From sequence record PZ026127.1: DNA of 64,000 nucleotides. The stretch is one strand, 5' to 3'. The translations under genes and the position numbers were made by a program. Origin of the DNA: a phage. The notes under the pieces are model-generated. The model was not told the DNA's origin. It did not search any database and saw nothing but the letters and a program-made list of their open reading frames with translations. This document shows, piece by piece, positions 9,666 to 63,699 of the stretch; position 1 is the first letter of the stretch; each line of letters starts with the position of its first letter.

Positions 9666-9694
9666 GTTTACATCTCCTGTAGGCGTGATACTAT
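9666..9694 (+). promoter_or_regulatory. early promoter (GTTTAC ... TGaTACTAT)
   Basis: -35 GTTTAC, 17 nt spacer, extended -10, followed by CCTATCAAC box. Confidence 0.5.
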
Positions 9695-10613: not shown

Positions 10614-10642
10614 GTTTACAACGGTCTATGGTAGTGATACTA
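10614..10642 (+). promoter_or_regulatory. early promoter
   Basis: GTTTAC at 10614, TGATACTAT extended -10, then CCTATCAAC box. Confidence 0.5.
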
Positions 10643-10671
10643 TGGACCTATCAACTACCGAGGAGAACATT

Positions 10672-11965: not shown

Positions 11966-12003
11966 TATAATGGCTCTATTAATTTAGAGCCCAAGGAAAA
12001 ATA

Positions 12004-14765: not shown

Positions 14766-14770
14766 TTATA

Positions 14771-14794
14771 AGGAACCTTCGGGTTCCTTTTTTG
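14771..14794 (+). terminator. intrinsic terminator (GGAACC-UUCG-GGUUCC plus U tract)
   Basis: aggaaccttcgggttcc followed by ttttttgg after soc. Confidence 0.8.
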
Positions 14795-14859
14795 GTTTTA
14801 AGGGTTTACTTTCTAAGAAGGTTATGTTAAGATGGTCTTATCTTATAGAGGAGAACACT

Positions 14860-16416: not shown

Positions 16417-16471
16417 AGTTTTACACCTCCTCCCTTCATGTTATAATGACCTCTAAATCACCGGAGGTCAT

Positions 16472-18899: not shown

Positions 18900-20227
18900 T
18901 TACATTTGAAGACTTGAACATCGGCCAGAGGACGGCCTTTAAAGAAATCATTGAAGCTATTAAACGACGTAAGGGCGAATGGATTACATTGAACGGCCCT
19001 GCTGGTACGGGTAAAACAACCCTTACCAAATTTATTCTTGACCATCTAGTCAAGAATGGTGAACTCGGAGTTATTTTGACTGCACCTACCCATGCGGCCA
19101 AAAAGGTGTTGTCGAAACTCGCAGGTCAAGAAGCATCAACAATTCATAGAATTCTAAAAATTAACCCTACTACGTACGAAGACCAGGACATCTTTGAACA
19201 ACGCGAAGCTCCTGACTTGAGCAAATGTAATGTTCTAGTTGTTGACGAAGGCTCGATGATTGACGGTAAGCTGTTTAAGATTATTGAATCCTCCGTGCCA
19301 CCATGGTGTACTGTATTAGGGATTGGCGACAGAGCTCAGCTACAGCCAGTGGAACCTGGAAGTGATGGTAGTCCGCAGTTGTCTCCATTCTTTACACATC
19401 CAAAAATCAAGCAATTGCATTTGACCGAAGTAATGCGTAGTAATGCTCCTATCATTGAGGTTGCTACCGAAATCCGTAATGGTGGGTGGTTTAGAGATTG
19501 TATATTCGAAGGACATGGTGTCCATGGTTTTAAATCTCAAACTGCTTTAAAAGATTTTATGATGAATTATTTTTCCATTGTAAAAGACGCGGATGCCTTA
19601 TTTGAAAATAGGATGTTTGCTTATACAAATAAATCGGTTGAAAAGCTGAATAGCATTATTCGTAAAAAGCTTTATGAAACCGATGCACCTTATATCAAGG
19701 GCGAAATCCTAGTGATGCAAGAGCCTTTTATGAAGGAACTTGAATACGATGGTAAGAAATTCTCTGAAACCATTTTTAATAATGGACAAATGGTTCGTAT
19801 TCTGGATGTGAACCATACCTCGTTGTTTTTGTCTGCTAAGGATGTAGGCACTCGTCAAATGATTAATTACTGGGACCTGCAAGTAGAATCTATCGATGAA
19901 GATGATGAGTATTATGTAGAGCATTTAAAGGTTATCGATGAGGCTTCAGTTGAGAAGTTCCATTATTTCTTGGCTAAGGTTGCTACTGAATACAAAGCCA
20001 TGCGTGGAACGGGTAAGAAACCTAAGTGGGCTGATTTCTGGAAAGCCAAGCGAATGTTCAGTAAGGTTCGAGCTCTTCCTGTGAGCACTGTTCATAAATC
20101 CCAAGGACTTACAGTCCAAAACAGTTTCATCTATACTCCATGCATGCATATGGCTGATGCGAATTTAGCTTCACAGCTGGCTTATGTTAGTATTACTCGT
20201 GCTCGTACTGACGCCTACTACGTTTGA
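18896..20227 (+). CDS. dda: Dda DNA helicase (SF1B)
   Basis: 443 aa; Walker A GPAGTGKTT and strong overall match to T4 Dda. Confidence 0.9.
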   Translation: MITFEDLNIGQRTAFKEIIEAIKRRKGEWITLNGPAGTGKTTLTKFILDHLVKNGELGVILTAPTHAAKKVLSKLAGQEASTIHRILKINPTTYEDQDIFEQREAPDLSKCNVLVVDEGSMIDGKLFKIIESSVPPWCTVLGIGDRAQLQPVEPGSDGSPQLSPFFTHPKIKQLHLTEVMRSNAPIIEVATEIRNGGWFRDCIFEGHGVHGFKSQTALKDFMMNYFSIVKDADALFENRMFAYTNKSVEKLNSIIRKKLYETDAPYIKGEILVMQEPFMKELEYDGKKFSETIFNNGQMVRILDVNHTSLFLSAKDVGTRQMINYWDLQVESIDEDDEYYVEHLKVIDEASVEKFHYFLAKVATEYKAMRGTGKKPKWADFWKAKRMFSKVRALPVSTVHKSQGLTVQNSFIYTPCMHMADANLASQLAYVSITRARTDAYYV

Positions 20228-20474: not shown

Positions 20475-21145
20475 AAGATATAATTATTGACTTTGAAACC
20501 TTTGCCACTACTCAAAATGCAGCGGTTATCGACCTAGCCGTAATTGCTTACGACCCTAATCCAGAGGTTGTAGAAACGTTTGAAGAGCTTACTCAACGAG
20601 GCCTTCGTATTAAATTTGACCTCGCTTCTCAACGTGATAAACGACTGTTTTCTAAAAGCACGTTGCAGTGGTGGAAAGAGCAAGGGCCTGAAGCGCGTAA
20701 AAACCTGGCTCCATCTGAAATTGATGTGTCCACTTCTATTGGTCTCGGTAATTTCCTGGAATACTGCCGTAAAAACGAAGTAGACCAATGGAAATCCCAG
20801 ATGTGGTGTCGTGGAATGTCCTTTGACTTTCCTATCTTAGTCGACCTTATTCGTGATGCTTATCGTTCTGAAGGGGTTCCTGAGAATGAAATCGATACCA
20901 GTAAATTAGAACCGGTTAAATTCTGGAACCAACGTGACATCCGTACAGCTATTGAAGCATATTCACTAACTCGTGGATTGAGCATGTGTCCTCTGCCTAA
21001 CGGAACATTGAACGGCTTTGTTGCTCATGACTCCATCCATGACTGTGCTAAGGATATCTTGATGCTGAAATATGCCCAACGTTATGCCTTAGGCCTGGAA
21101 GATGTCCCTGAGAATCCGGACCCATTAAGTATAAAAAATCGATAA
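20471..21145 (+). CDS. dexA: exonuclease A (DnaQ-like 3'-5' exonuclease)
   Basis: 224 aa, N-terminal DFET exonuclease motif; position after dda as in T4. Confidence 0.8.
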   Translation: MKDIIIDFETFATTQNAAVIDLAVIAYDPNPEVVETFEELTQRGLRIKFDLASQRDKRLFSKSTLQWWKEQGPEARKNLAPSEIDVSTSIGLGNFLEYCRKNEVDQWKSQMWCRGMSFDFPILVDLIRDAYRSEGVPENEIDTSKLEPVKFWNQRDIRTAIEAYSLTRGLSMCPLPNGTLNGFVAHDSIHDCAKDILMLKYAQRYALGLEDVPENPDPLSIKNR

Positions 21146-21148
21146 AAG

Positions 21149-21179
21149 TGTTTACTTCTCCTCATGACATGATATTATC
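21149..21179 (+). promoter_or_regulatory. early promoter with embedded inverted repeat
   Basis: GTTTAC, TGATATTAT; CTCCTCATG in spacer pairs with CATGAGGAG at the RBS. Confidence 0.5.
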
Positions 21180-21205
21180 TACCCTATCAACATGAGGAGA
21201 ACAAA

Positions 21206-21715
21206 ATGAAAATTTATCGAGTGGAGTCATCGTTCAGTATCTTAGATAACAGCGATGTTATAGCAATCACTCACCAACAGTGCCGCCAATTAACACCGTA
21301 TAGAGGCTCGTTTGATGAATGGAGCGAAGGTTGGTTATTAGAAGTAGGTTTCGACAAACCTAATTTTAGACACCACCATACCAATAATAAAAATATTCCA
21401 CTACCAGGTCAAGACAAGTTGTTGGTGGAAAATTCTAATAAAACCATTCGAACTAAGTGGAACCAGCCTGATTATGAAGGCTGTGATGATTATATTCCAG
21501 GTTGGTTTGTTAATCTCTACCATTTTGCTTTTGCCAGTGAGTATGATATGATGCGCTGGTTCACTCGTGAAGAGCGTGAAGAATTATCTTCTAAAGGATT
21601 CTATCTTGCCGTTTACGAAATCCCTGAAGATGAGGTTGTCATTGGTGGCCGCCAAGTAATGTTCCGCAAATCCCATGCTGAACTCGTAGATTTTATTGAA
21701 TTGAGAACAATATGA
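21206..21715 (+). CDS. hypothetical protein
   Basis: 169 aa ORF with GAGGAGAA RBS. Confidence 0.5.
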   Translation: MKIYRVESSFSILDNSDVIAITHQQCRQLTPYRGSFDEWSEGWLLEVGFDKPNFRHHHTNNKNIPLPGQDKLLVENSNKTIRTKWNQPDYEGCDDYIPGWFVNLYHFAFASEYDMMRWFTREEREELSSKGFYLAVYEIPEDEVVIGGRQVMFRKSHAELVDFIELRTI

Positions 21716-22260: not shown

Positions 22261-22333
22261 TAGTTTACTTTATCGAGAGCCATGTTATAATGGCTCTCAT
22301 GGAGAATAAACTTATTAACCAAGAGAGAAAATT

Positions 22334-22957: not shown

Positions 22958-23176
22958 ATGGCTAAAGTTACTGTGAACTCGACTCGTGAAGAATTTGAAG
23001 ATGTTCTGTTCAACCCTGATTTAATCGTGGTTCAAAAGGAACATTCTGATACGTTTTCTCATTTATCGTCGGTTTATGTATACGAAAACCAAGGTGATGA
23101 AAACCCTATCTATGCGGTGTTCCGTGAAATCACTGCTGAAGGCACCGACTTCTGGAAGGAAACTTATAATGCTTAA
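22958..23176 (+). CDS. hypothetical small protein
   Basis: 72 aa, RBS GAGAGGAAAA. Confidence 0.5.
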   Translation: MAKVTVNSTREEFEDVLFNPDLIVVQKEHSDTFSHLSSVYVYENQGDENPIYAVFREITAEGTDFWKETYNA

Positions 23177-24117: not shown

Positions 24118-25935
24118 ATGATTAAGAATGAAATTAAAGTACTGTCCGACATTGAACATATCAAAAAACGTAGTGGGATGTATATTGGCTCAAGTGCTAA
24201 TGAAGCTCACAGTCGATTCCTGTTTGGTAATTTTACACAGGTAAACTATGTTCCTGGACTGGTTAAATTAATTGATGAAATCATTGATAACTCTGTCGAT
24301 GAAGCTATTCGTACCAATTTTAAATTCGCAAATAAAATTGATGTTCAAATTAAGAATAACCAGGTTTCAGTTTCTGATAATGGTCGTGGTATTCCACAAG
24401 CAATGGTCACCGACCAAAATGGTGAACAGATTCCAGGTCCTGTAGCTGCATGGACTATTCCAAAGGCAGGTGGTAACTTTGGAGATGACGCTGAGCGTAA
24501 GACAGGCGGCATGAATGGTGTCGGTAGTAGTTTAACTAATATCTTCTCTGTTTTGTTCACAGGCATCACCTCTGATGGTGAGAATGAGATTACTGTTAAC
24601 TGTTCAAACGGAATGGAAAACAAAGGTTGGTCTACTAAGAAATCTAAAGGTAAGGGTACTTCGGTTATATTCACCCCAGACTTTAATCATTTCGAAGAAA
24701 ATAGCCTGTCACAAATTTATCTGGATATTACATTAGACCGATTGCAAACTCTGGCCGTAGTTTATCCTGATATTCAATTTACTTTTAATGGTAAAAAAGT
24801 AGATGGCAACTTTAAAAAGTATGCTAAGCAATTTGGTGAAGACTTTGTAATCCAAGAAACCGATAATGTTTCGATGGCATTTACTCCTTCTCCGGATGGA
24901 TTCCGTCAACTGACTTATGTAAACAATATCCACACCAAGAATGGTGGCCACCACGTTGAATGCGTATTCGATGATATTTGTGAACACCTTCTGCCAGGCA
25001 TTAAAAAGAAATACCGTGGAATTGAAGTAACTAAAGCTCGTGTTAAAGAATGCCTTACGATGGTGATGTTCATTCGTGATATGAGCAACATGCGTTTTGA
25101 TTCACAGACTAAAGAACGTTTGACCTCTCCTTTTGGTGAGATTCGCAATCATATCCAAATTGATGCTAAGAAAATTGCTCAAGCCATTCTTAAAGTTGAT
25201 GGGTTGATTATGCCTATCGTTGAAGCTGCTTTAGCACGTAAATTAGCAGCTGAAAAGGCTGCCGAAACTAAAGCCGCTAAGAAAGCTTCTAAAGCCAAGG
25301 TCCATAAGCATATTAAAGCTAACCTATACGGCAAAGATGCTGATACAACCCTGTTCCTAACCGAAGGTGATTCCGCTATGGGTCCTTTCATTGAAGTTCG
25401 TAATAAAGACCTTCAAGGTGGTTACCCATTGCGTGGTAAGGTTATGAATACCTGGGGAATGACAGCAACAGATATCATGAAGAACAAGGAACTATTTGAT
25501 ATCTGTGCAATCACTGGACTTGTTATTGGCGAACCTGCAGAGAAAACTAACTATCGTAATATCGCTATTATGACTGATGCTGATGTGGATGGTACTGGTT
25601 CGATTTATCCATCATTGCTAGCCTTCTTTAGTCAATGGCCCGAATTGTTCGAACAAGGCCGAGTACGGTTCTGTAAAACTCCGGTGATTATTGCCCAGGT
25701 TGGTAAAGAACAGGAATGGTTCTATGACGTTCCTAGTTATACCAAAGCTAAGGACTCTCTACCAAAACATTCTATTCGGTACATCAAAGGACTAGGTTCT
25801 CTTGAGAAAGCTGAATATCGTCGAATGATTCAAGACCCTAAATTTGATGTGGTTCAATTACCTGAAGATTGGAAAGAACAGTTCGAAATGCTCCTTGGTA
25901 ATGACCCACAACTCCGTAAGGCCTGGATGTCGTAA
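24118..25935 (+). CDS. 39: DNA topoisomerase II large subunit (GyrB-like ATPase), uninterrupted 39/60-equivalent
   Basis: 605 aa single ORF with GHKL ATPase N-terminus and Toprim-like C-terminal half. Confidence 0.9.
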   Translation: MIKNEIKVLSDIEHIKKRSGMYIGSSANEAHSRFLFGNFTQVNYVPGLVKLIDEIIDNSVDEAIRTNFKFANKIDVQIKNNQVSVSDNGRGIPQAMVTDQNGEQIPGPVAAWTIPKAGGNFGDDAERKTGGMNGVGSSLTNIFSVLFTGITSDGENEITVNCSNGMENKGWSTKKSKGKGTSVIFTPDFNHFEENSLSQIYLDITLDRLQTLAVVYPDIQFTFNGKKVDGNFKKYAKQFGEDFVIQETDNVSMAFTPSPDGFRQLTYVNNIHTKNGGHHVECVFDDICEHLLPGIKKKYRGIEVTKARVKECLTMVMFIRDMSNMRFDSQTKERLTSPFGEIRNHIQIDAKKIAQAILKVDGLIMPIVEAALARKLAAEKAAETKAAKKASKAKVHKHIKANLYGKDADTTLFLTEGDSAMGPFIEVRNKDLQGGYPLRGKVMNTWGMTATDIMKNKELFDICAITGLVIGEPAEKTNYRNIAIMTDADVDGTGSIYPSLLAFFSQWPELFEQGRVRFCKTPVIIAQVGKEQEWFYDVPSYTKAKDSLPKHSIRYIKGLGSLEKAEYRRMIQDPKFDVVQLPEDWKEQFEMLLGNDPQLRKAWMS

Positions 25936-25979
25936 TAAATATGTATGGTACTAATTGGTGCCATACAAAAGGAGACTTT

Positions 25980-26141
25980 ATGAGAAAGTACTGGGTTACG
26001 CTCGTCACCGGTGAATACGGTTATATCTGGACTGATACTAGACCTCAGTTTGCAGAATACGTGACTATTACAGTCGAGACATGGGACGGCGAAGTTTACC
26101 AAACCCGCGGACAAGTCTATAAGGTCGATTCAAGTAACTAA
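25980..26141 (+). CDS. hypothetical small protein
   Basis: 53 aa from ATG 25980 after AGGAG. Confidence 0.4.
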   Translation: MRKYWVTLVTGEYGYIWTDTRPQFAEYVTITVETWDGEVYQTRGQVYKVDSSN

Positions 26142-31311: not shown

Positions 31312-31578
31312 GTAGCAAAATGTGGTGCCTTATTTGGATGGCCTGTATCCCAGTGATTTGCGTATGTTTTAGTTTATTGTTGTGGAAATTGGCATAAATC
31401 AGTATACATCTCCATTAATCATGATATTATAGACCTATCAACTAATGGAGATGATTATGAAAAACTTACTTAAAGCAATTTGGAACATGTTTGTGTTGTT
31501 AATGGTATTGAGCATTTTCCCAATCGTTTTTATGATTGACCATGTACGTGTATTCTTTAACTTCTGAGGAAAATATTA

Positions 31579-32145: not shown

Positions 32146-32173
32146 TTTACAACCTCGAGAATCATGTTATAAT
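32145..32173 (+). promoter_or_regulatory. early promoter with inverted repeat flanking -10
   Basis: GTTTAC, TGTTATAAT; GAGAATCAT / ATGGTTCTC flank the -10. Confidence 0.5.
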
Positions 32174-32222
32174 GGTTCTCGTTGACTGGATAACAAACCA
32201 TTAATCTACTGAGGAAATTGAT

Positions 32223-34553: not shown

Positions 34554-34653
34554 GCCTTGGAGTCGAGTTCTTGTTACTCTGTATCTTTGCTGTTATCCTA
34601 GGCCTGGCGACAGGCTTAGCTATAGGTTTAATAGCAGCCCACTTTAAAAAGTA
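34549..34653 (+). CDS. small hydrophobic peptide
   Basis: 34 aa transmembrane ORF coupled to gene 52 stop. Confidence 0.3.
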
Positions 34654-34655
34654 AG

Positions 34656-34682
34656 GAACCTTCGGGTTCCTTTTTTTGGGTT
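34656..34682 (+). terminator. intrinsic terminator (GGAACC-UUCG-GGUUCC plus U tract)
   Basis: ggaaccttcgggttcc ttttttt. Confidence 0.8.
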
Positions 34683-34696
34683 TAGTGCAAAAAAGT

Positions 34697-34736
34697 GTTT
34701 ACATCTGCTTTAAACATGATACTATAGACCTATCAA
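34697..34736 (+). promoter_or_regulatory. early promoter
   Basis: GTTTAC ... CATGATACTATAGACCTATCAA cassette. Confidence 0.5.
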
Positions 34737-43245: not shown

Positions 43246-43264
43246 AAACGAAAAAGGAACCCGA
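43246..43264 (-). terminator. intrinsic terminator on - strand after gene 35
   Basis: - strand reads ggaaccttcgggttcc followed by tttttcgttttt. Confidence 0.7.
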
Positions 43265-43271
43265 AGGTTCC

Positions 43272-44393
43272 TTAATATTTTTCTCTAAATTCAGCGACCC
43301 AAACCTGACCAGGTTTAGTGCCTGTTTTATCATATAGCTGGGCTATGGTAGTACCCATATTTTTAGTTTCCGTACCAAAGTTCATACGAATACCGTTAAC
43401 ACCAAATTCAGCAGGTTTTGGCTGAGGTTCTGATTCAGATATCTCACCGAACATAACATTTCGAACTCCGCCTTGGCCAGCCGAAGCTGTTTTTCTGGCA
43501 TAAAGAGTAAAGTCTGTAGTACCTTCAGGAACCATTACTACCCGTTCAAATGTCATCCATGCACCAGCAGGAACGTTGGAAGGAACGTCCATATTAACTG
43601 TCCCAGTTAAAGCACCTGAGGCATTAAAAAATCTAACAGACATCTGAGAAGTCCCTACGTCTTTTAAAGCTTGGTCGCGCATTAATTGAAACTTAAGGTA
43701 AAAGAATTCACCTGGTTTCATATTATAATCTGTTAATGGGGTGGTAGGAGATTCGGTAGGAAATCGCTTAATTTCATCTCCATCATTGCTTAGATAAGTG
43801 CTTTCGTCTTCAACAATTCTGACAGGATATCCTGTACCACCGACATCACTGATATCATCAAATACCACTTCCAATGGAGTAGAAACATCTTCGACCAATA
43901 CCCCATCATTATAAAGCACATGTTCCATTACTATAGCATTCCTTCCTGAAACATAAAATGCCGAATAAGACGGCTCGAAGCGGTCTATTAGCCATTTAGA
44001 TGGAAATGCGGTACTTCCTGCTGCACGGAACCAATCGATAAGTTTTTGTGAAGCATTTAATCTACCAGAAGATACTAAACAAACTATTCTATTAGCCGGT
44101 ATAGAATTTATATACGTTATAAAAGCTTCAGAAATAACATCAAAATCTTTTGTAAAACTATAAGTTTTGTTAGCCACTATTTTGGGTTCAGCACTAACAT
44201 CAATTTCTATAAGGTTTAATCCATTTTGAAAATTCTGGGAACCGAAGTTCCCATCTTGAAATTTAACATATGCTTTTGTGGTAGACTTAGTACAACTACC
44301 CGCTATACTAAGTTTATACCTTACAGCATTGTTTTCAGATAATGTAGGAACCTGGACATATCCTTGTCCAAATTCTGCCATAAATCTTTCCAT
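43272..44393 (-). CDS. 35: long tail fibre hinge protein gp35
   Basis: 373 aa; position between 34 and 36. Confidence 0.85.
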   Translation of the reverse strand: MERFMAEFGQGYVQVPTLSENNAVRYKLSIAGSCTKSTTKAYVKFQDGNFGSQNFQNGLNLIEIDVSAEPKIVANKTYSFTKDFDVISEAFITYINSIPANRIVCLVSSGRLNASQKLIDWFRAAGSTAFPSKWLIDRFEPSYSAFYVSGRNAIVMEHVLYNDGVLVEDVSTPLEVVFDDISDVGGTGYPVRIVEDESTYLSNDGDEIKRFPTESPTTPLTDYNMKPGEFFYLKFQLMRDQALKDVGTSQMSVRFFNASGALTGTVNMDVPSNVPAGAWMTFERVVMVPEGTTDFTLYARKTASAGQGGVRNVMFGEISESEPQPKPAEFGVNGIRMNFGTETKNMGTTIAQLYDKTGTKPGQVWVAEFREKY

Positions 44394-48420: not shown

Positions 48421-48449
48421 GTTTACTTCCTTAAAACCCATGATATAAT
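48421..48449 (+). promoter_or_regulatory. early promoter for rnh
   Basis: GTTTAC, 14 nt, TGATATAAT; followed by GACCTCT / AGAGGTT inverted repeat. Confidence 0.55.
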
Positions 48450-48480
48450 GGACCTCTCAACTACTTGAACAGAGGTTCAT

Positions 48481-51688: not shown

Positions 51689-51731
51689 GTTTACAACGCC
51701 TTTAAACATGATACTATAGACCTATCAACTA
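51689..51731 (+). repeat. early-promoter cassette copy 1 (identical 43-nt promoter-plus-box unit)
   Basis: gtttacaacgcctttaaacatgatactatagacctatcaacta, identical to copy at 52401. Confidence 0.7.
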
Positions 51732-52689: not shown

Positions 52690-52744
52690 GTTTACACCAG
52701 GCTATGGTAGTGATACTATAGCCTTATCAACTAAGGAGAATAAA

Positions 52745-58342: not shown

Positions 58343-58369
58343 GGAATGGGGCTTCGGCCCCTTATTGCT

Positions 58370-58783: not shown

Positions 58784-59928
58784 TTGAATTATATGATAAC
58801 TTGATGGCCCTGGTTAAAAACTCGACTAAATCTAAGTTCTTCTTTAAAGACTTTCAGAGTGCGCTAGGAGTCAACTATCGCATCTTTAGTTATAACTATG
58901 CATCGTACAGTGATTGGTTGGAAGACGGCGCACTAGAGTGCCGAGGCATTATGTTTGAAATGGACGAGAACGGTCCAGTACGTATTGCTGCTCGTCCTAT
59001 GCAAAAGTTCTTTAACCTTGACGAAAACCCTCTGACCATCGGTCTAGATTTGTCACCAGAAAATATTGACCTCGTAATGGCTAAGGAAGATGGTTCTCTG
59101 ATTTCTACATTCATGGACCGACAGTATCTTTCTGTTAAATCTAAAGGCTCTATCCATTCATCAATGGTGCATGATTCTTTACGGTTCCTTCGTCTCCCTG
59201 AGAACGAGGCTTTTGCCGCACGTCTAGAAGAAATCACCAAAGCTGGGTATACCTGCAACCTTGAATATGTTGCACCTACCAACCGTATCGTGCTGGCTTA
59301 CCAAGAAACAAATCTCATCCTGTTGAACGTTCGTAATAATGAAACCGGTGAATATATTCCATATGCGGAATTGTTTAAGGACGGCGCACTGCGTAAGCAT
59401 TTGGTTGAAAGCTATGAGCTCGCTGAGGGCGATTTCGTAGAAAACATCCGTAAGCAGGAAGGCATTGAAGGTTTCATCTTTGTACTGAAAGATGGTACGT
59501 TCTTTAAACTCAAAACCGCCTGGTACAGTGCACTGCATCATACCAAAGATTCCATTAACAACAACGAACGTTTGTTTGAAGTTGTAGTGGCTGGTGGAAC
59601 TGATGACCTTCGTGGTCTGTTCAGTACAGATTCCTTTGCTATCGAGAAAATCGATGCCTTTGAACGCATCCATTTAGATTACCTAGAACAATCATTAGCC
59701 TTGTTAGAAGCAGCTTACTCTCAACTCAAAGGTCGCGACCGTAAAGACTATGCCGTTACTGGACAGCTAATCCTTAAGGACTTCCCAGGGTTGTTCTCTA
59801 TTCTTATGCAGGCGTACGTAGGCGGTATTAATTATGATACGGTCATGGACCAGATTAACTCTGTGTTCTTGAAAAATCATAAGGCCCAAATCCCTGAAAA
59901 ATATTTGAAAGAAATTGTGGTAGAGTAG
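58780..59928 (+). CDS. rnlA: RNA ligase 1
   Basis: 382 aa; YRIFSYNYASYSDW and ECRGIMFE motifs match T4 Rnl1 (gene 63). Confidence 0.9.
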   Translation: MIELYDNLMALVKNSTKSKFFFKDFQSALGVNYRIFSYNYASYSDWLEDGALECRGIMFEMDENGPVRIAARPMQKFFNLDENPLTIGLDLSPENIDLVMAKEDGSLISTFMDRQYLSVKSKGSIHSSMVHDSLRFLRLPENEAFAARLEEITKAGYTCNLEYVAPTNRIVLAYQETNLILLNVRNNETGEYIPYAELFKDGALRKHLVESYELAEGDFVENIRKQEGIEGFIFVLKDGTFFKLKTAWYSALHHTKDSINNNERLFEVVVAGGTDDLRGLFSTDSFAIEKIDAFERIHLDYLEQSLALLEAAYSQLKGRDRKDYAVTGQLILKDFPGLFSILMQAYVGGINYDTVMDQINSVFLKNHKAQIPEKYLKEIVVE

Positions 59929-59956
59929 TTTACATCTCCTCATGACGTGTTAGTAT
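59928..59956 (+). promoter_or_regulatory. early promoter with TCTCCTCAT / ATGAGGAGA inverted repeat
   Basis: GTTTAC, GTTAGTAT -10-like; spacer sequence pairs with the RBS. Confidence 0.5.
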
Positions 59957-59986
59957 AGACTTACCAACTAATGAGGAGAAAACAAA

Positions 59987-60487
59987 ATGAATATGCAAAT
60001 GATTACTAACGAAATGGTTGTTAAGGCTTTTGGTGACTCTACTGACGGCATCCAAGTTTTTAAAGGTTCTCGTGCAGTAGGTTACCTGACCGATCTTCGT
60101 GTCACTTTAGCTAAAAATGCTAAAAAGAAAATCAAGCAAAAAGAATACTCTACCCGTTATGCAGAAGAAAAGCGTGAAGCCATGCCGGAAGCTGTTAACT
60201 CTATGGTTGAGTTTCTCCAAAATAACCTTTCCAAGTACGATGCCGAGGTATTCATTAATATTAGCCAACCTAATGTTAAAATCTCAGGCATCACTTTCTA
60301 TTTGATTTGTGACCCATTAAGCGACAAGTTTAATCGCCTTGGCATTTCAAGTCCTTACCATACTGCTGAAGAATTATGTTTTATGTTTGAAACGTATAAA
60401 ATTCAGTGTGAAAATCCTAAAACGGTTCTTATTAATTCCCTGTCACGTGATGACATCATCGAGATTATTACCAAATGTCTAAATTAA
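59987..60487 (+). CDS. alc: Alc-like protein (transcription termination on cytosine DNA)
   Basis: 166 aa in the position and size of T4 alc. Confidence 0.65.
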   Translation: MNMQMITNEMVVKAFGDSTDGIQVFKGSRAVGYLTDLRVTLAKNAKKKIKQKEYSTRYAEEKREAMPEAVNSMVEFLQNNLSKYDAEVFINISQPNVKISGITFYLICDPLSDKFNRLGISSPYHTAEELCFMFETYKIQCENPKTVLINSLSRDDIIEIITKCLN

Positions 60488-61115: not shown

Positions 61116-61282
61116 TTGAAGCGTGTACTGATGGATGGGATATCGTTCGATTCGGTTTTGTCTGCTTTTGTTTTGGAATTCTGATTAGTATATGTATTGG
61201 CGGTCTTTTCGGAAAGTAGTTTACAAACTCATGGGAGCAGAGTATAATGCTCCTACGGATTATAAAAATCGAGGAAATTATT

Positions 61283-63659: not shown

Positions 63660-63699
63660 GTTTACACTATGGTAGGACTGTGGTATAGTAGTCCTACCG
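63660..63699 (+). promoter_or_regulatory. early promoter with inverted repeat flanking -10
   Basis: GTTTAC; GGTAGGACT / AGTCCTACC flank TGGTATAGT. Confidence 0.5.

Follow-up and report, generated by a model that had tools for sequence, protein, structure and literature searches.

A putative own-promoter-only translation gate at motB.2 and other early genes of a T4-like coliphage

Introduction

The DNA analysed here is a stretch of 64,000 nucleotides (nt) from phage sequence record PZ026127.1, referred to as the window. Within it, the 60-nt gap between the end of dexA (21145) and the start of motB.2 (21206) is occupied by an early-promoter cassette, in which part of the promoter spacer is the reverse complement of the Shine-Dalgarno (SD) region of motB.2. 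The locus raises the question of whether translation of a gene can depend on which promoter produced its messenger. A first-pass annotation, made from the letters alone, had proposed for several cassettes that read-through transcripts contain both arms of such a repeat and fold over the ribosome-binding site (RBS), whereas transcripts started at the local promoter lack the 5' arm. On balance, folding and comparison with related phages make it probable that the promoter sits inside a hairpin acting as a gate, so that only the own-promoter mRNA of motB.2, modB, alc and an ndd.4-like gene would be freely translatable.

The window belongs to a T4-like coliphage of the JS98/IME08 group (Dhakavirus), with 99.5% identity to Escherichia phage vB_EcoM-E33 over 4 kb. 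Its gene order, modB-modA-srd-dda-dexA-motB.2-motB.1-motB-cef-goF-39-rIIA-rIIB, is collinear with those of IME08 and T4. On the + strand there are 21 T4 early-promoter patterns of the form GTTTAC-N17/18-TAnnAT, with an SD and a start codon downstream of each.

The motB.2 cassette

The gap before motB.2 reads, in order, GTTTAC (21150-21155), the spacer TTCTCCTCATGACATGA, TATTAT (21173-21178), CTACCCTATCAA, CATGAGGAGAA, CAAA and ATG. The features of the cassette are as follows.

21150 to 21155, + strand: -35 box GTTTAC of the motB.2 early promoter, in a GTTTAC-N17-TATTAT motif kept in all relatives
21156 to 21166, + strand: 5' arm TTCTCCTCATG (anti-SD) in the promoter spacer, invariant in Dhakavirus relatives
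21173 to 21178, + strand: -10 box TATTAT, with the inferred start site at about 21185-21186
21191 to 21201, + strand: 3' arm CATGAGGAGAA, including the SD GAGGAG of motB.2, which pairs with TTCTCCTCATG
21206 to 21715, + strand: motB.2 open reading frame (ORF), 169 amino acids (aa), the gene that would be controlled
21139 to 21146, + strand: outer helix strand TCGATAAA, covering the dexA stop codon, which pairs with TTTATCGA at 21213-21220 (motB.2 codons 3-5) in the minimum-free-energy (MFE) structure of the long RNA

The inverted repeat that the first-pass annotation had placed at 21149 was confirmed as 11 perfect base pairs (bp) between 21156-21166 and 21191-21201, the 3' arm being the SD and the 24-nt loop containing the -10 box and the inferred start site. 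The outer helix extends the RBS structure; its counterpart in T4 is ACGATAAA/TTTATCGT, where the change is compensated and silent in the motB.2 codons.

The RBS opening energy was defined as the free-energy cost of freeing the region from the SD to the AUG of base pairs. It was calculated for a long RNA starting 40 nt upstream of the -35 box and for a local RNA starting at the promoter; the difference is given as ddG, and z values were computed against shuffles of the upstream part. Transcription starts were inferred at 7 nt beyond the end of the -10 box in all cassettes, a spacing that agrees with the T4 RefSeq promoter name Pe133295 (cd.3), which is the position exactly 7 nt beyond the cd.3 -10. 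For motB.2, opening of the RBS costs 19.6 kcal/mol in the long RNA against 3.3 kcal/mol in the local RNA (z = 7.2 against the shuffled upstream part). The folding tool returned the long RNA as strongly structured (z = -5.0), with the helix present in the centroid and about 24 bp of interrupted helix overall, and the short RNA as unstructured.

As had been stated for the SD-pairing cassettes, both arms are present only in RNA whose start lies 5' of the local promoter. Polymerase coming from early or middle promoters further upstream would transcribe both arms, and the 11-bp helix together with the outer helix would bury the SD and AUG of the read-through RNA, leaving 30S initiation at motB.2 poor. 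RNA from the local sigma-70-type promoter is predicted to begin about 5 nt before the 3' arm; the 5' arm, being untranscribed spacer, would be missing from it and the RBS would be open. Translation of motB.2 would thus be tied to its own immediate-early promoter, likewise that of modB, alc and the ndd.4-like gene, and the gated genes would be insulated both from accumulating upstream transcripts and from later read-through. The model makes two further predictions: untranslated read-through RNA may become a target of Rho (polarity), and the exposed GGAG of the short mRNA is a candidate RegB site.

Read-through into motB.2 is expected because, between the srd promoter (17780) and 21150, the only terminator-like hit of a terminator scan was a minimal one, with a stem of 5 bp, at 19511 within dda, and because the motB.2 hairpin itself lacks a U-tract. 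The same scan detects true terminators at 14770 and 24050 and called none at any hairpin that joins a promoter to the SD or flanks the -10 box; these hairpins have no U-tract, their 3' arms being followed by AACAAAATG or similar. The reading of the SD-pairing hairpins as intrinsic terminators was therefore set aside.

Other cassettes with promoter-to-SD pairing

Cassettes were divided into class A, in which the hairpin pairs promoter sequence with the SD, and class B, with a hairpin flanking or overlapping the -10 box. Among 22 cassettes of the window, four have promoter-to-SD pairing, six have a -10-flanking hairpin and 12 have neither, apart from a weak SD pairing at 48421. Promoter-to-SD pairing is thus not a general feature of cassettes in the window. 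The class A cassettes other than motB.2 are as follows.

16419 to 16471, + strand: modB cassette, with -35 TTTTAC at 16419-16424, -10 at 16442-16447, 5' arm ATGACCTCT at 16446-16454 and 3' arm GGAGGTCAT at 16463-16471, comprising the SD up to the AUG
59928 to 59979, + strand: alc cassette, with -35 at 59928-59933, 5' arm TCTCCTCAT at 59935-59943, -10 at 59951-59956 and 3' arm ATGAGGAGA at 59971-59979
31402 to 31459, + strand: cassette newly recognised here, with a -35-like GTATAC at 31402-31407, 5' arm CATCTCCATTA at 31407-31417, -10 at 31425-31430, 3' arm TAATGGAGATG at 31443-31453 and start codon at 31457

The repeat annotated at 59928 was recovered as 9 perfect bp (59935-59943/59971-59979) ahead of the alc ORF (59987-60487), and opening of its RBS costs 11.1 kcal/mol in the long RNA against 1.0 in the local RNA (ddG 10.1, z 3.8). 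The claim for 16425 held in part: the modB promoter does pair with its SD, but through main arms at 16446-16454 and 16463-16471, while 16425 marks an alternative partner, ACCTCC (16425-16430), for GGAGGT at 16463-16468. The modB values are 15.2 (long) against 2.5 (local) kcal/mol, with a ddG of 12.7 and a z of 4.6. In the comparison of long and promoter-proximal RNAs that had been suggested as a check, the predicted RBS opening cost was 10-16 kcal/mol higher in class A long RNA.

The cassette at 31402 was found through an additional perfect repeat of at least 9 bp, the fifth in a cassette. Its RBS opening energies are 14.8 and 1.8 kcal/mol (ddG 13.0, z 3.1), and it precedes a 37-40-aa ndd.4-like membrane protein with three in-frame ATGs (31445, 31451 and 31457). 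The T4 counterpart, ndd.4 (N-terminus MKKIIKAIWNV, promoter 166807), is also class A, with arms GTTCTTCC/GGAGGAAC.

A large difference between long and local RNA could be observed in only three of the 21 GTTTAC cassettes, namely motB.2, modB and alc; the 48421 (rnh) and 9666 promoters were marginal, at about 5 kcal/mol. When 58 SD-bearing gene starts were ranked by RBS sequestration, motB.2 came first and modB second, with alc in the top five and rnh in the top seven. The window as a whole has no excess of perfect inverted repeats (at least 9 bp, 3-40 nt loop), with 12 found against 10 +/- 2.5 in shuffles. Four of these 12 fall in the roughly 2% of the sequence made up by the 21 GTTTAC cassettes, and a fifth lies in the cassette with a degenerate -35 box. 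The location of the repeats in cassettes is non-random; their number is not.

Survey of early-promoter cassettes

The survey covered 145 unique cassettes from the window, T4, RB69 and 33 related loci. Class A was called at a ddG of at least 8, and chimeras of real promoters with real RBSs of other cassettes served as the control. A class call by pairs in the MFE structure was dropped as too permissive (85 of the 145 came out as class A), and energy criteria were used instead. Class A made up 19% of the cassettes against 2.9% of the chimeras (Fisher p = 1.5e-10) and class B 29% against 5.3% (p = 5e-14); no cassette belonged to both.

The class was found to be specific to the gene. All seven motB.2 cassettes and 12 of the 14 alc cassettes are class A; the gene downstream of the 52690 promoter has a class B hairpin in all 12 orthologous cassettes, with arms of five different sequences; and 12 of 16 ortholog groups are homogeneous in class. 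An intrinsic terminator within 80 nt upstream precedes 31 of 75 cassettes with no hairpin, against one of 28 in class A and none of 42 in class B (odds ratio 49, p = 6e-10). Promoters of the window with a preceding terminator are those at 9666, 14804, 26167, 34697 and 51689. Class A hairpins, class B hairpins and upstream terminators are almost mutually exclusive and look like alternative insulators against read-through.

Hairpins flanking the -10 box

When class B cassettes are folded from the -35 box to the ATG, a hairpin of 9-14 bp forms, with one arm in the spacer and the other overlapping the -10 box or immediately following it; the hairpin ends at about the start site. The six in the window are the following.

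22275 to 22298, + strand: motB promoter (22263), GAGAGCCAT (22275-22283) / ATGGCTCTC (22290-22298), 9 bp, enclosing the -10 at 22286-22291
10623 to 10648, + strand: promoter 10614, GGTCTATGGTA / TACTATGGACC, overlapping the -10
32156 to 32181, + strand: promoter 32145, CGAGAATCAT / ATGGTTCTCG, enclosing the -10
52699 to 52724, + strand: promoter 52690, AGGCTATGGTA / TACTATAGCCT, overlapping the -10
61229 to 61258, + strand: promoter 61219, with a 6-bp core GGAGCA (61234-61239) / TGCTCC (61248-61253), enclosing the -10
63671 to 63698, + strand: promoter 63660, GGTAGGACT (63671-63679) / AGTCCTACC (63690-63698), 9 bp, enclosing the -10

The -10-flanking repeats that had been pointed out at three of these promoters do exist (22275-22283/22290-22298, 61234-61239/61248-61253 and 63671-63679/63690-63698). 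They do not sequester the RBS, the ddG between long and local RNA being about 0, and so cannot act on translation as proposed; they fit published stem-loops of early promoters instead. Promoter-dependent sequestration of the RBS thus stands, as a structural premise supported in silico and by comparison, for class A and falls for class B.

These hairpins are conserved, with equivalents elsewhere. T4-group phages have GGGACC/GGTCC(C/T) at the position equivalent to that in the motB promoter, and, for comparison with 63660, the T4 cd.3 promoter has a hairpin with arms GGTAGAGTT/AGCTCTACC. The T4 motB promoter (AAACTCTTGGGACCAGAGTATAATGGTCCC; T4 7215-7180, locus L044) is nearly the same as the 61219 cassette of the window (AAACTCATGGGAGCAGAGTATAATGCTCCT, 61219-61258), the stem differing by a compensated C-G to G-C change and the downstream gene being a different one. 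This likeness suggests, from the sequences compared, cassette exchange with the hairpin kept. Between 22898 and 22960, a GTATAC -35 box is followed by a class B hairpin, AGGGTA/TACCCT, around TACTAT, ahead of a small ORF starting at 22958 in the position of cef; this promoter closely resembles the T4 promoter at 146143.

Conservation of the pairing between promoter and SD

The motB.2 arms of Dhakavirus phages are TCTCCTCATG/CATGAGGAGA, and they are invariant while the adjoining coding DNA drops to 77-82% identity. T4, T6, AR1 and RB7 have TCCTCGGTTAG/CTACTGAGGA, and RB69, in which a different gene lies upstream, has TTCTCCTCTGGTT/AACCAGAGGAGAA, a helix of 13 bp with a ddG of 18.3. Kanagawavirus-like and other phages have GATGACCTC/GAGGTCATC, ATGACCTCCT/AGGAGGTCAT and TATGCCTTCCTA/TAGGAGGGTATA, with the 5' arm shifted to the -10/discriminator region. 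The SD pairs with the 5' arm in every case, including those with a shifted arm, which points to translation as the target and speaks against a generic hairpin. This comparison was made by per-sequence folds and by hand; RNAalifold returned no helix for the motB.2 cassettes, the position of the 5' arm varying by genus and the arms being misaligned by MAFFT.

Class A structures could also be found in T4 at modB (ddG 14.0), motB.2 (11.5), alc (16.5), ndd.4 (13.5) and the gene 30.8 promoter (11.1). The modB cassette of RB69 is class A as well, with a ddG of 14.2; modB keeps the pairing in T4 and RB69 with different arms. At alc, an SD helix of 9-14 bp is present in T4, Dhakavirus, Citrobacter phage Moon, Serratia phage CHI14, Enterobacter phage CIP9 and Salmonella phage STML-198. 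An alignment of seven alc cassettes, extending to four further genera, gave 13 pairs with 96.7% of cells paired and four pairs changed on both sides, one position appearing as G-C, U-A and C-G. In 500 shuffles, the observed values for percentage paired, for cells with changes on both sides and for the covariation score were never reached, while 77 of the 500 reached the observed count of doubly changed pairs. Controls with a slid register were only 33-53% paired. Judged from these alignments and folds, the class A pairing is under selection and is kept by compensatory change across genera.

Comparison with known systems

The principle of a promoter inside an RBS hairpin is known from T4 late genes. 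For e, soc, 49 and I-TevI, a late promoter lies within an RBS-sequestering hairpin, local transcripts without the 5' strand are translated, and the arrangement is kept in related phages; for e, translation of the long transcript is about 100-fold lower (PMC3014915). The cassettes described here resemble these cases in that the SD is predicted to be paired in the long RNA and the inferred start of the internal promoter lies between the arms. They differ in the promoter, which is the gp55 late promoter TATAAATA in the T4 cases, delaying translation to the late period, and a sigma-70 early GTTTAC-N17-TAnnAT here. They differ also in the genes: motB.2, modB, alc and the ndd.4-like gene are not listed as such in the 2010 T4 translation review, whose list is confined to late-promoter cases and homing endonucleases (PMC3014915). 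RBS hairpins in upstream-promoter transcripts have further been described for Aeromonas phage Aeh1 mobE and other homing-endonuclease genes (cited in PMC3014915); those are mobile endonuclease genes with late promoters, unlike the conserved early host-takeover set considered here.

Promoter-early stem-loops (PeSLs) have been described in RB49/phi1, T4/PST and KVP40/nt-1 as compact modules in which a strong sigma-70-like promoter, with AT-rich DNA upstream of it, is combined with a stem-loop, an SD and a start codon (PMC2839356, PMC4122927). Five positions are recorded for the stem-loop (upstream of the -35, over the -35, between the boxes, over the -10, and from the -10 to the start site), and in the T4/PST set it lies just upstream of the promoter (PMC2839356, PMC4122927). 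The published interpretation is one of termination or attenuation and of recombination, with repeated, shuffled copies and indels in hyperplastic regions (PMC2839356, PMC4122927). The motB.2 cassette shares with PeSLs the AT-rich upstream region, the strong sigma-70-like early promoter, the SD and the start codon, and the class B hairpins (22263, 61219, 63660, 10614, 32145, 52690) occupy described PeSL positions. Unlike PeSLs, class A hairpins have as their 3' arm the SD in the transcribed leader; no PeSL position uses the SD, and all end before the start site.

Literature searches, which yielded reviews and PeSL papers only, found no description of early promoters within RBS hairpins at alc, modB, motB.2 or ndd.4, although an earlier mention in older work is possible. 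With both the late-gene principle and the PeSL stem-loops already known, the early-promoter version with an SD arm would be a new variant.

Alternative explanations

The gate draws directly on the sequences, the thermodynamic contrast between long and local RNA, the enrichment over controls, the compensatory conservation and the exclusivity with terminators. Several observations weigh against it. The 5' arm of the motB.2 and alc cassettes starts only 2-16 nt past the upstream stop codon, and a ribosome terminating there could partly open the helix, coupling translation instead of blocking it. The folding leaves out co-transcriptional kinetics and ribosomes and uses inferred start sites. Read-through into alc may in any case be limited, owing to a terminator-like hairpin at 58348. 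Moreover, alc is not always class A: an 11-bp hairpin flanking the -10 takes its place in one phage of the Kanagawavirus group (L085) and two of the T4 group (L027, L029), and in three others (L026, L028, L030) alc is preceded by an intrinsic terminator and has no GTTTAC promoter. Substitutions of the G.U and A.C types, which distinguish constraint on RNA from constraint on DNA, stood at 8 against 5, many of them in doubtful helices. Folding favours the sense over the antisense strand by 1.6 kcal/mol, a gap for which base composition could account.

The most serious rival is translational coupling, in which the RBS is shut on polycistronic RNA unless a ribosome ending dexA or rnlA melts the 5' arm, so that read-through RNA is translated in proportion to the upstream gene. 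The model for it is the replicase and lysis genes of MS2, whose RBS is closed by upstream pairing and opened by upstream translation. Such RNA phages have no promoter choice and ribosomes do the opening, whereas here the start point of the RNA would decide. The short distance from the stop codon to the 5' arm, which recurs in motB.2 and alc cassettes of many phages, and the inclusion of the dexA stop codon in the motB.2 outer helix both speak for coupling. The 5' arm of modB, however, lies 25-38 nt past the stop, beyond the reach of a terminating ribosome, and its pairing is nevertheless kept in three genera. The motB.2 arm has moved to the -10/discriminator in Kanagawavirus-like phages, and the established T4 cases, e and I-TevI, block translation rather than couple it. 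Coupling is considered unlikely.

The hairpins may alternatively be PeSL-type modules, in which the stem-loop attenuates upstream transcripts, serves as a recombination site or does both, the pairing with the SD being incidental. In the published PeSLs, an early promoter has its stem-loop between or over the -35 and -10 boxes, and one such stem-loop cut lacZ expression as strongly as rrnB T1 (PMC2839356). The mutual exclusivity of class A, class B and upstream terminators would fit such modules, as would the sharing of a spacer arm and SD (TCTCCTCAT/ATGAGGAGA) by the motB.2 and alc cassettes of the window and the change of cassette type ahead of alc between related phages. Yet the hairpins of both classes lack a U-tract and drew no terminator call, and all class A lineages use the SD as the 3' partner, whether the 5' arm sits in the spacer or in the discriminator. 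The class also stays constant for each gene while the arm sequences turn over, which argues for gene-specific selection rather than random shuffling. The PeSL reading fits class B well and leaves the constant SD targeting of class A unexplained; for class A we regard it as rather improbable.

Still less probable is an element of RNA processing or stability, in which the helix would be cut by RNase III, protect the SD GGAG of long transcripts from RegB or serve as a 3'-end barrier for the upstream mRNA. The roughly 24-bp interrupted helix of the long motB.2 RNA, the only one to reach that length, could be read in this way, and RegB is known to cut GGAG in early SDs and to be blocked by secondary structure (PMC3014915). 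The core helices, at 9-13 bp, are however short for RNase III, which needs about two turns (at least 20 bp, mostly continuous), and the outer helix cannot match in RB69, where motB.2 is preceded by another gene. Shielding from RegB would come as a by-product of RBS occlusion and be no alternative to it, and the Rfam scan matched no family. Nothing in the analysis supports the processing site that had been suggested earlier.

Chance or base composition, by which pyrimidine-rich spacers would simply complement purine-rich SDs, is highly improbable: the SDs are all GAGGA-like, so that any CTCC in a spacer pairs, and perfect repeats show no overall excess in the window, but chimeras reach a ddG of at least 8 far less often than native cassettes (2.9% against 19%), the helices extend well past the SD core with compensatory changes, and the repeats are concentrated in cassettes.

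Further features of the window

Three other loci of the window have pairing near an SD.

48448 to 48480, + strand: weak class A-like pairing at the rnh promoter (48421), ATGGACCTC (48448-48456) / GAGGTTCAT (48472-48480), ddG 5.5
11966 to 11991: TATAAT followed by a hairpin GGCTCTA/TAGAGCC adjoining the primase SD, upstream of gene 61 (start 12004)
25930 to 25985: hairpin GTATGGTAC...GTGCCATAC just 5' of the SD of a 53-aa ORF (start 25980)

The rnh cassette was rejected as class A, given a ddG of only 5.5, the lack of pairing at T4 rnh and the absence of a co-directional upstream gene; the upstream gene is divergent, and therefore little read-through is expected. The RBS opening energy of gene 61, 12.4 kcal/mol, is the third highest in the window, and its hairpin may be a middle-promoter version of the promoter/SD theme. 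The locus at 25930-25985 has an opening energy of 12.1 kcal/mol and no early promoter motif.

Gene 39 is a single ORF of 605 aa at 24118-25935. The topoisomerase subunit is thus unsplit, unlike T4 genes 39 and 60, and there is therefore no gene-60 bypass element in the window. The promoters at 51689 and 52401 are identical at 43 of 45 positions and form paralogous cassettes. A 20-nt terminator hairpin, AAGGAACCTTCGGGTTCCTT, followed by a T-run, is repeated ahead of two early promoters (14770-14809 and 34653-34702), and its variant AAGGAACCCGAAGGTTCCTT lies between tail-fibre genes at 43254-43273. To judge by their sequences, the repeated terminator hairpin and the near-identical 51689 and 52401 promoters point to duplication or shuffling of cassettes, which has been described for PeSLs.

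Biological significance

Taken more broadly, the results suggest a conserved own-promoter-only gate for host-takeover genes (alc, modB, motB.2, ndd.4), the mirror of the late-only gate, with many early promoters insulated by one of three interchangeable devices (a preceding intrinsic terminator, a class B hairpin or a class A hairpin). This wider proposal is put forward tentatively, at slightly less than even confidence. It can be tested in T4 itself, because T4 has equivalent structures at alc, modB, motB.2 and ndd.4, and the cassettes would offer natural promoter-RBS insulator parts for phage engineering. If the proposal is true, PeSL stem-loops would gain a second, translational role, and the distinction between immediate-early and delayed-early genes of T4 would be refined, a textbook late-gene mechanism being extended to early genes. 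Insulation by three devices would give a sequence-level reason for the strictly immediate-early behaviour of some early genes. Should the gate operate as proposed, compact operons would uncouple the translation of selected genes from upstream transcripts, and the dose and timing of toxic host-takeover proteins such as Alc and ModB would be set by a single promoter.

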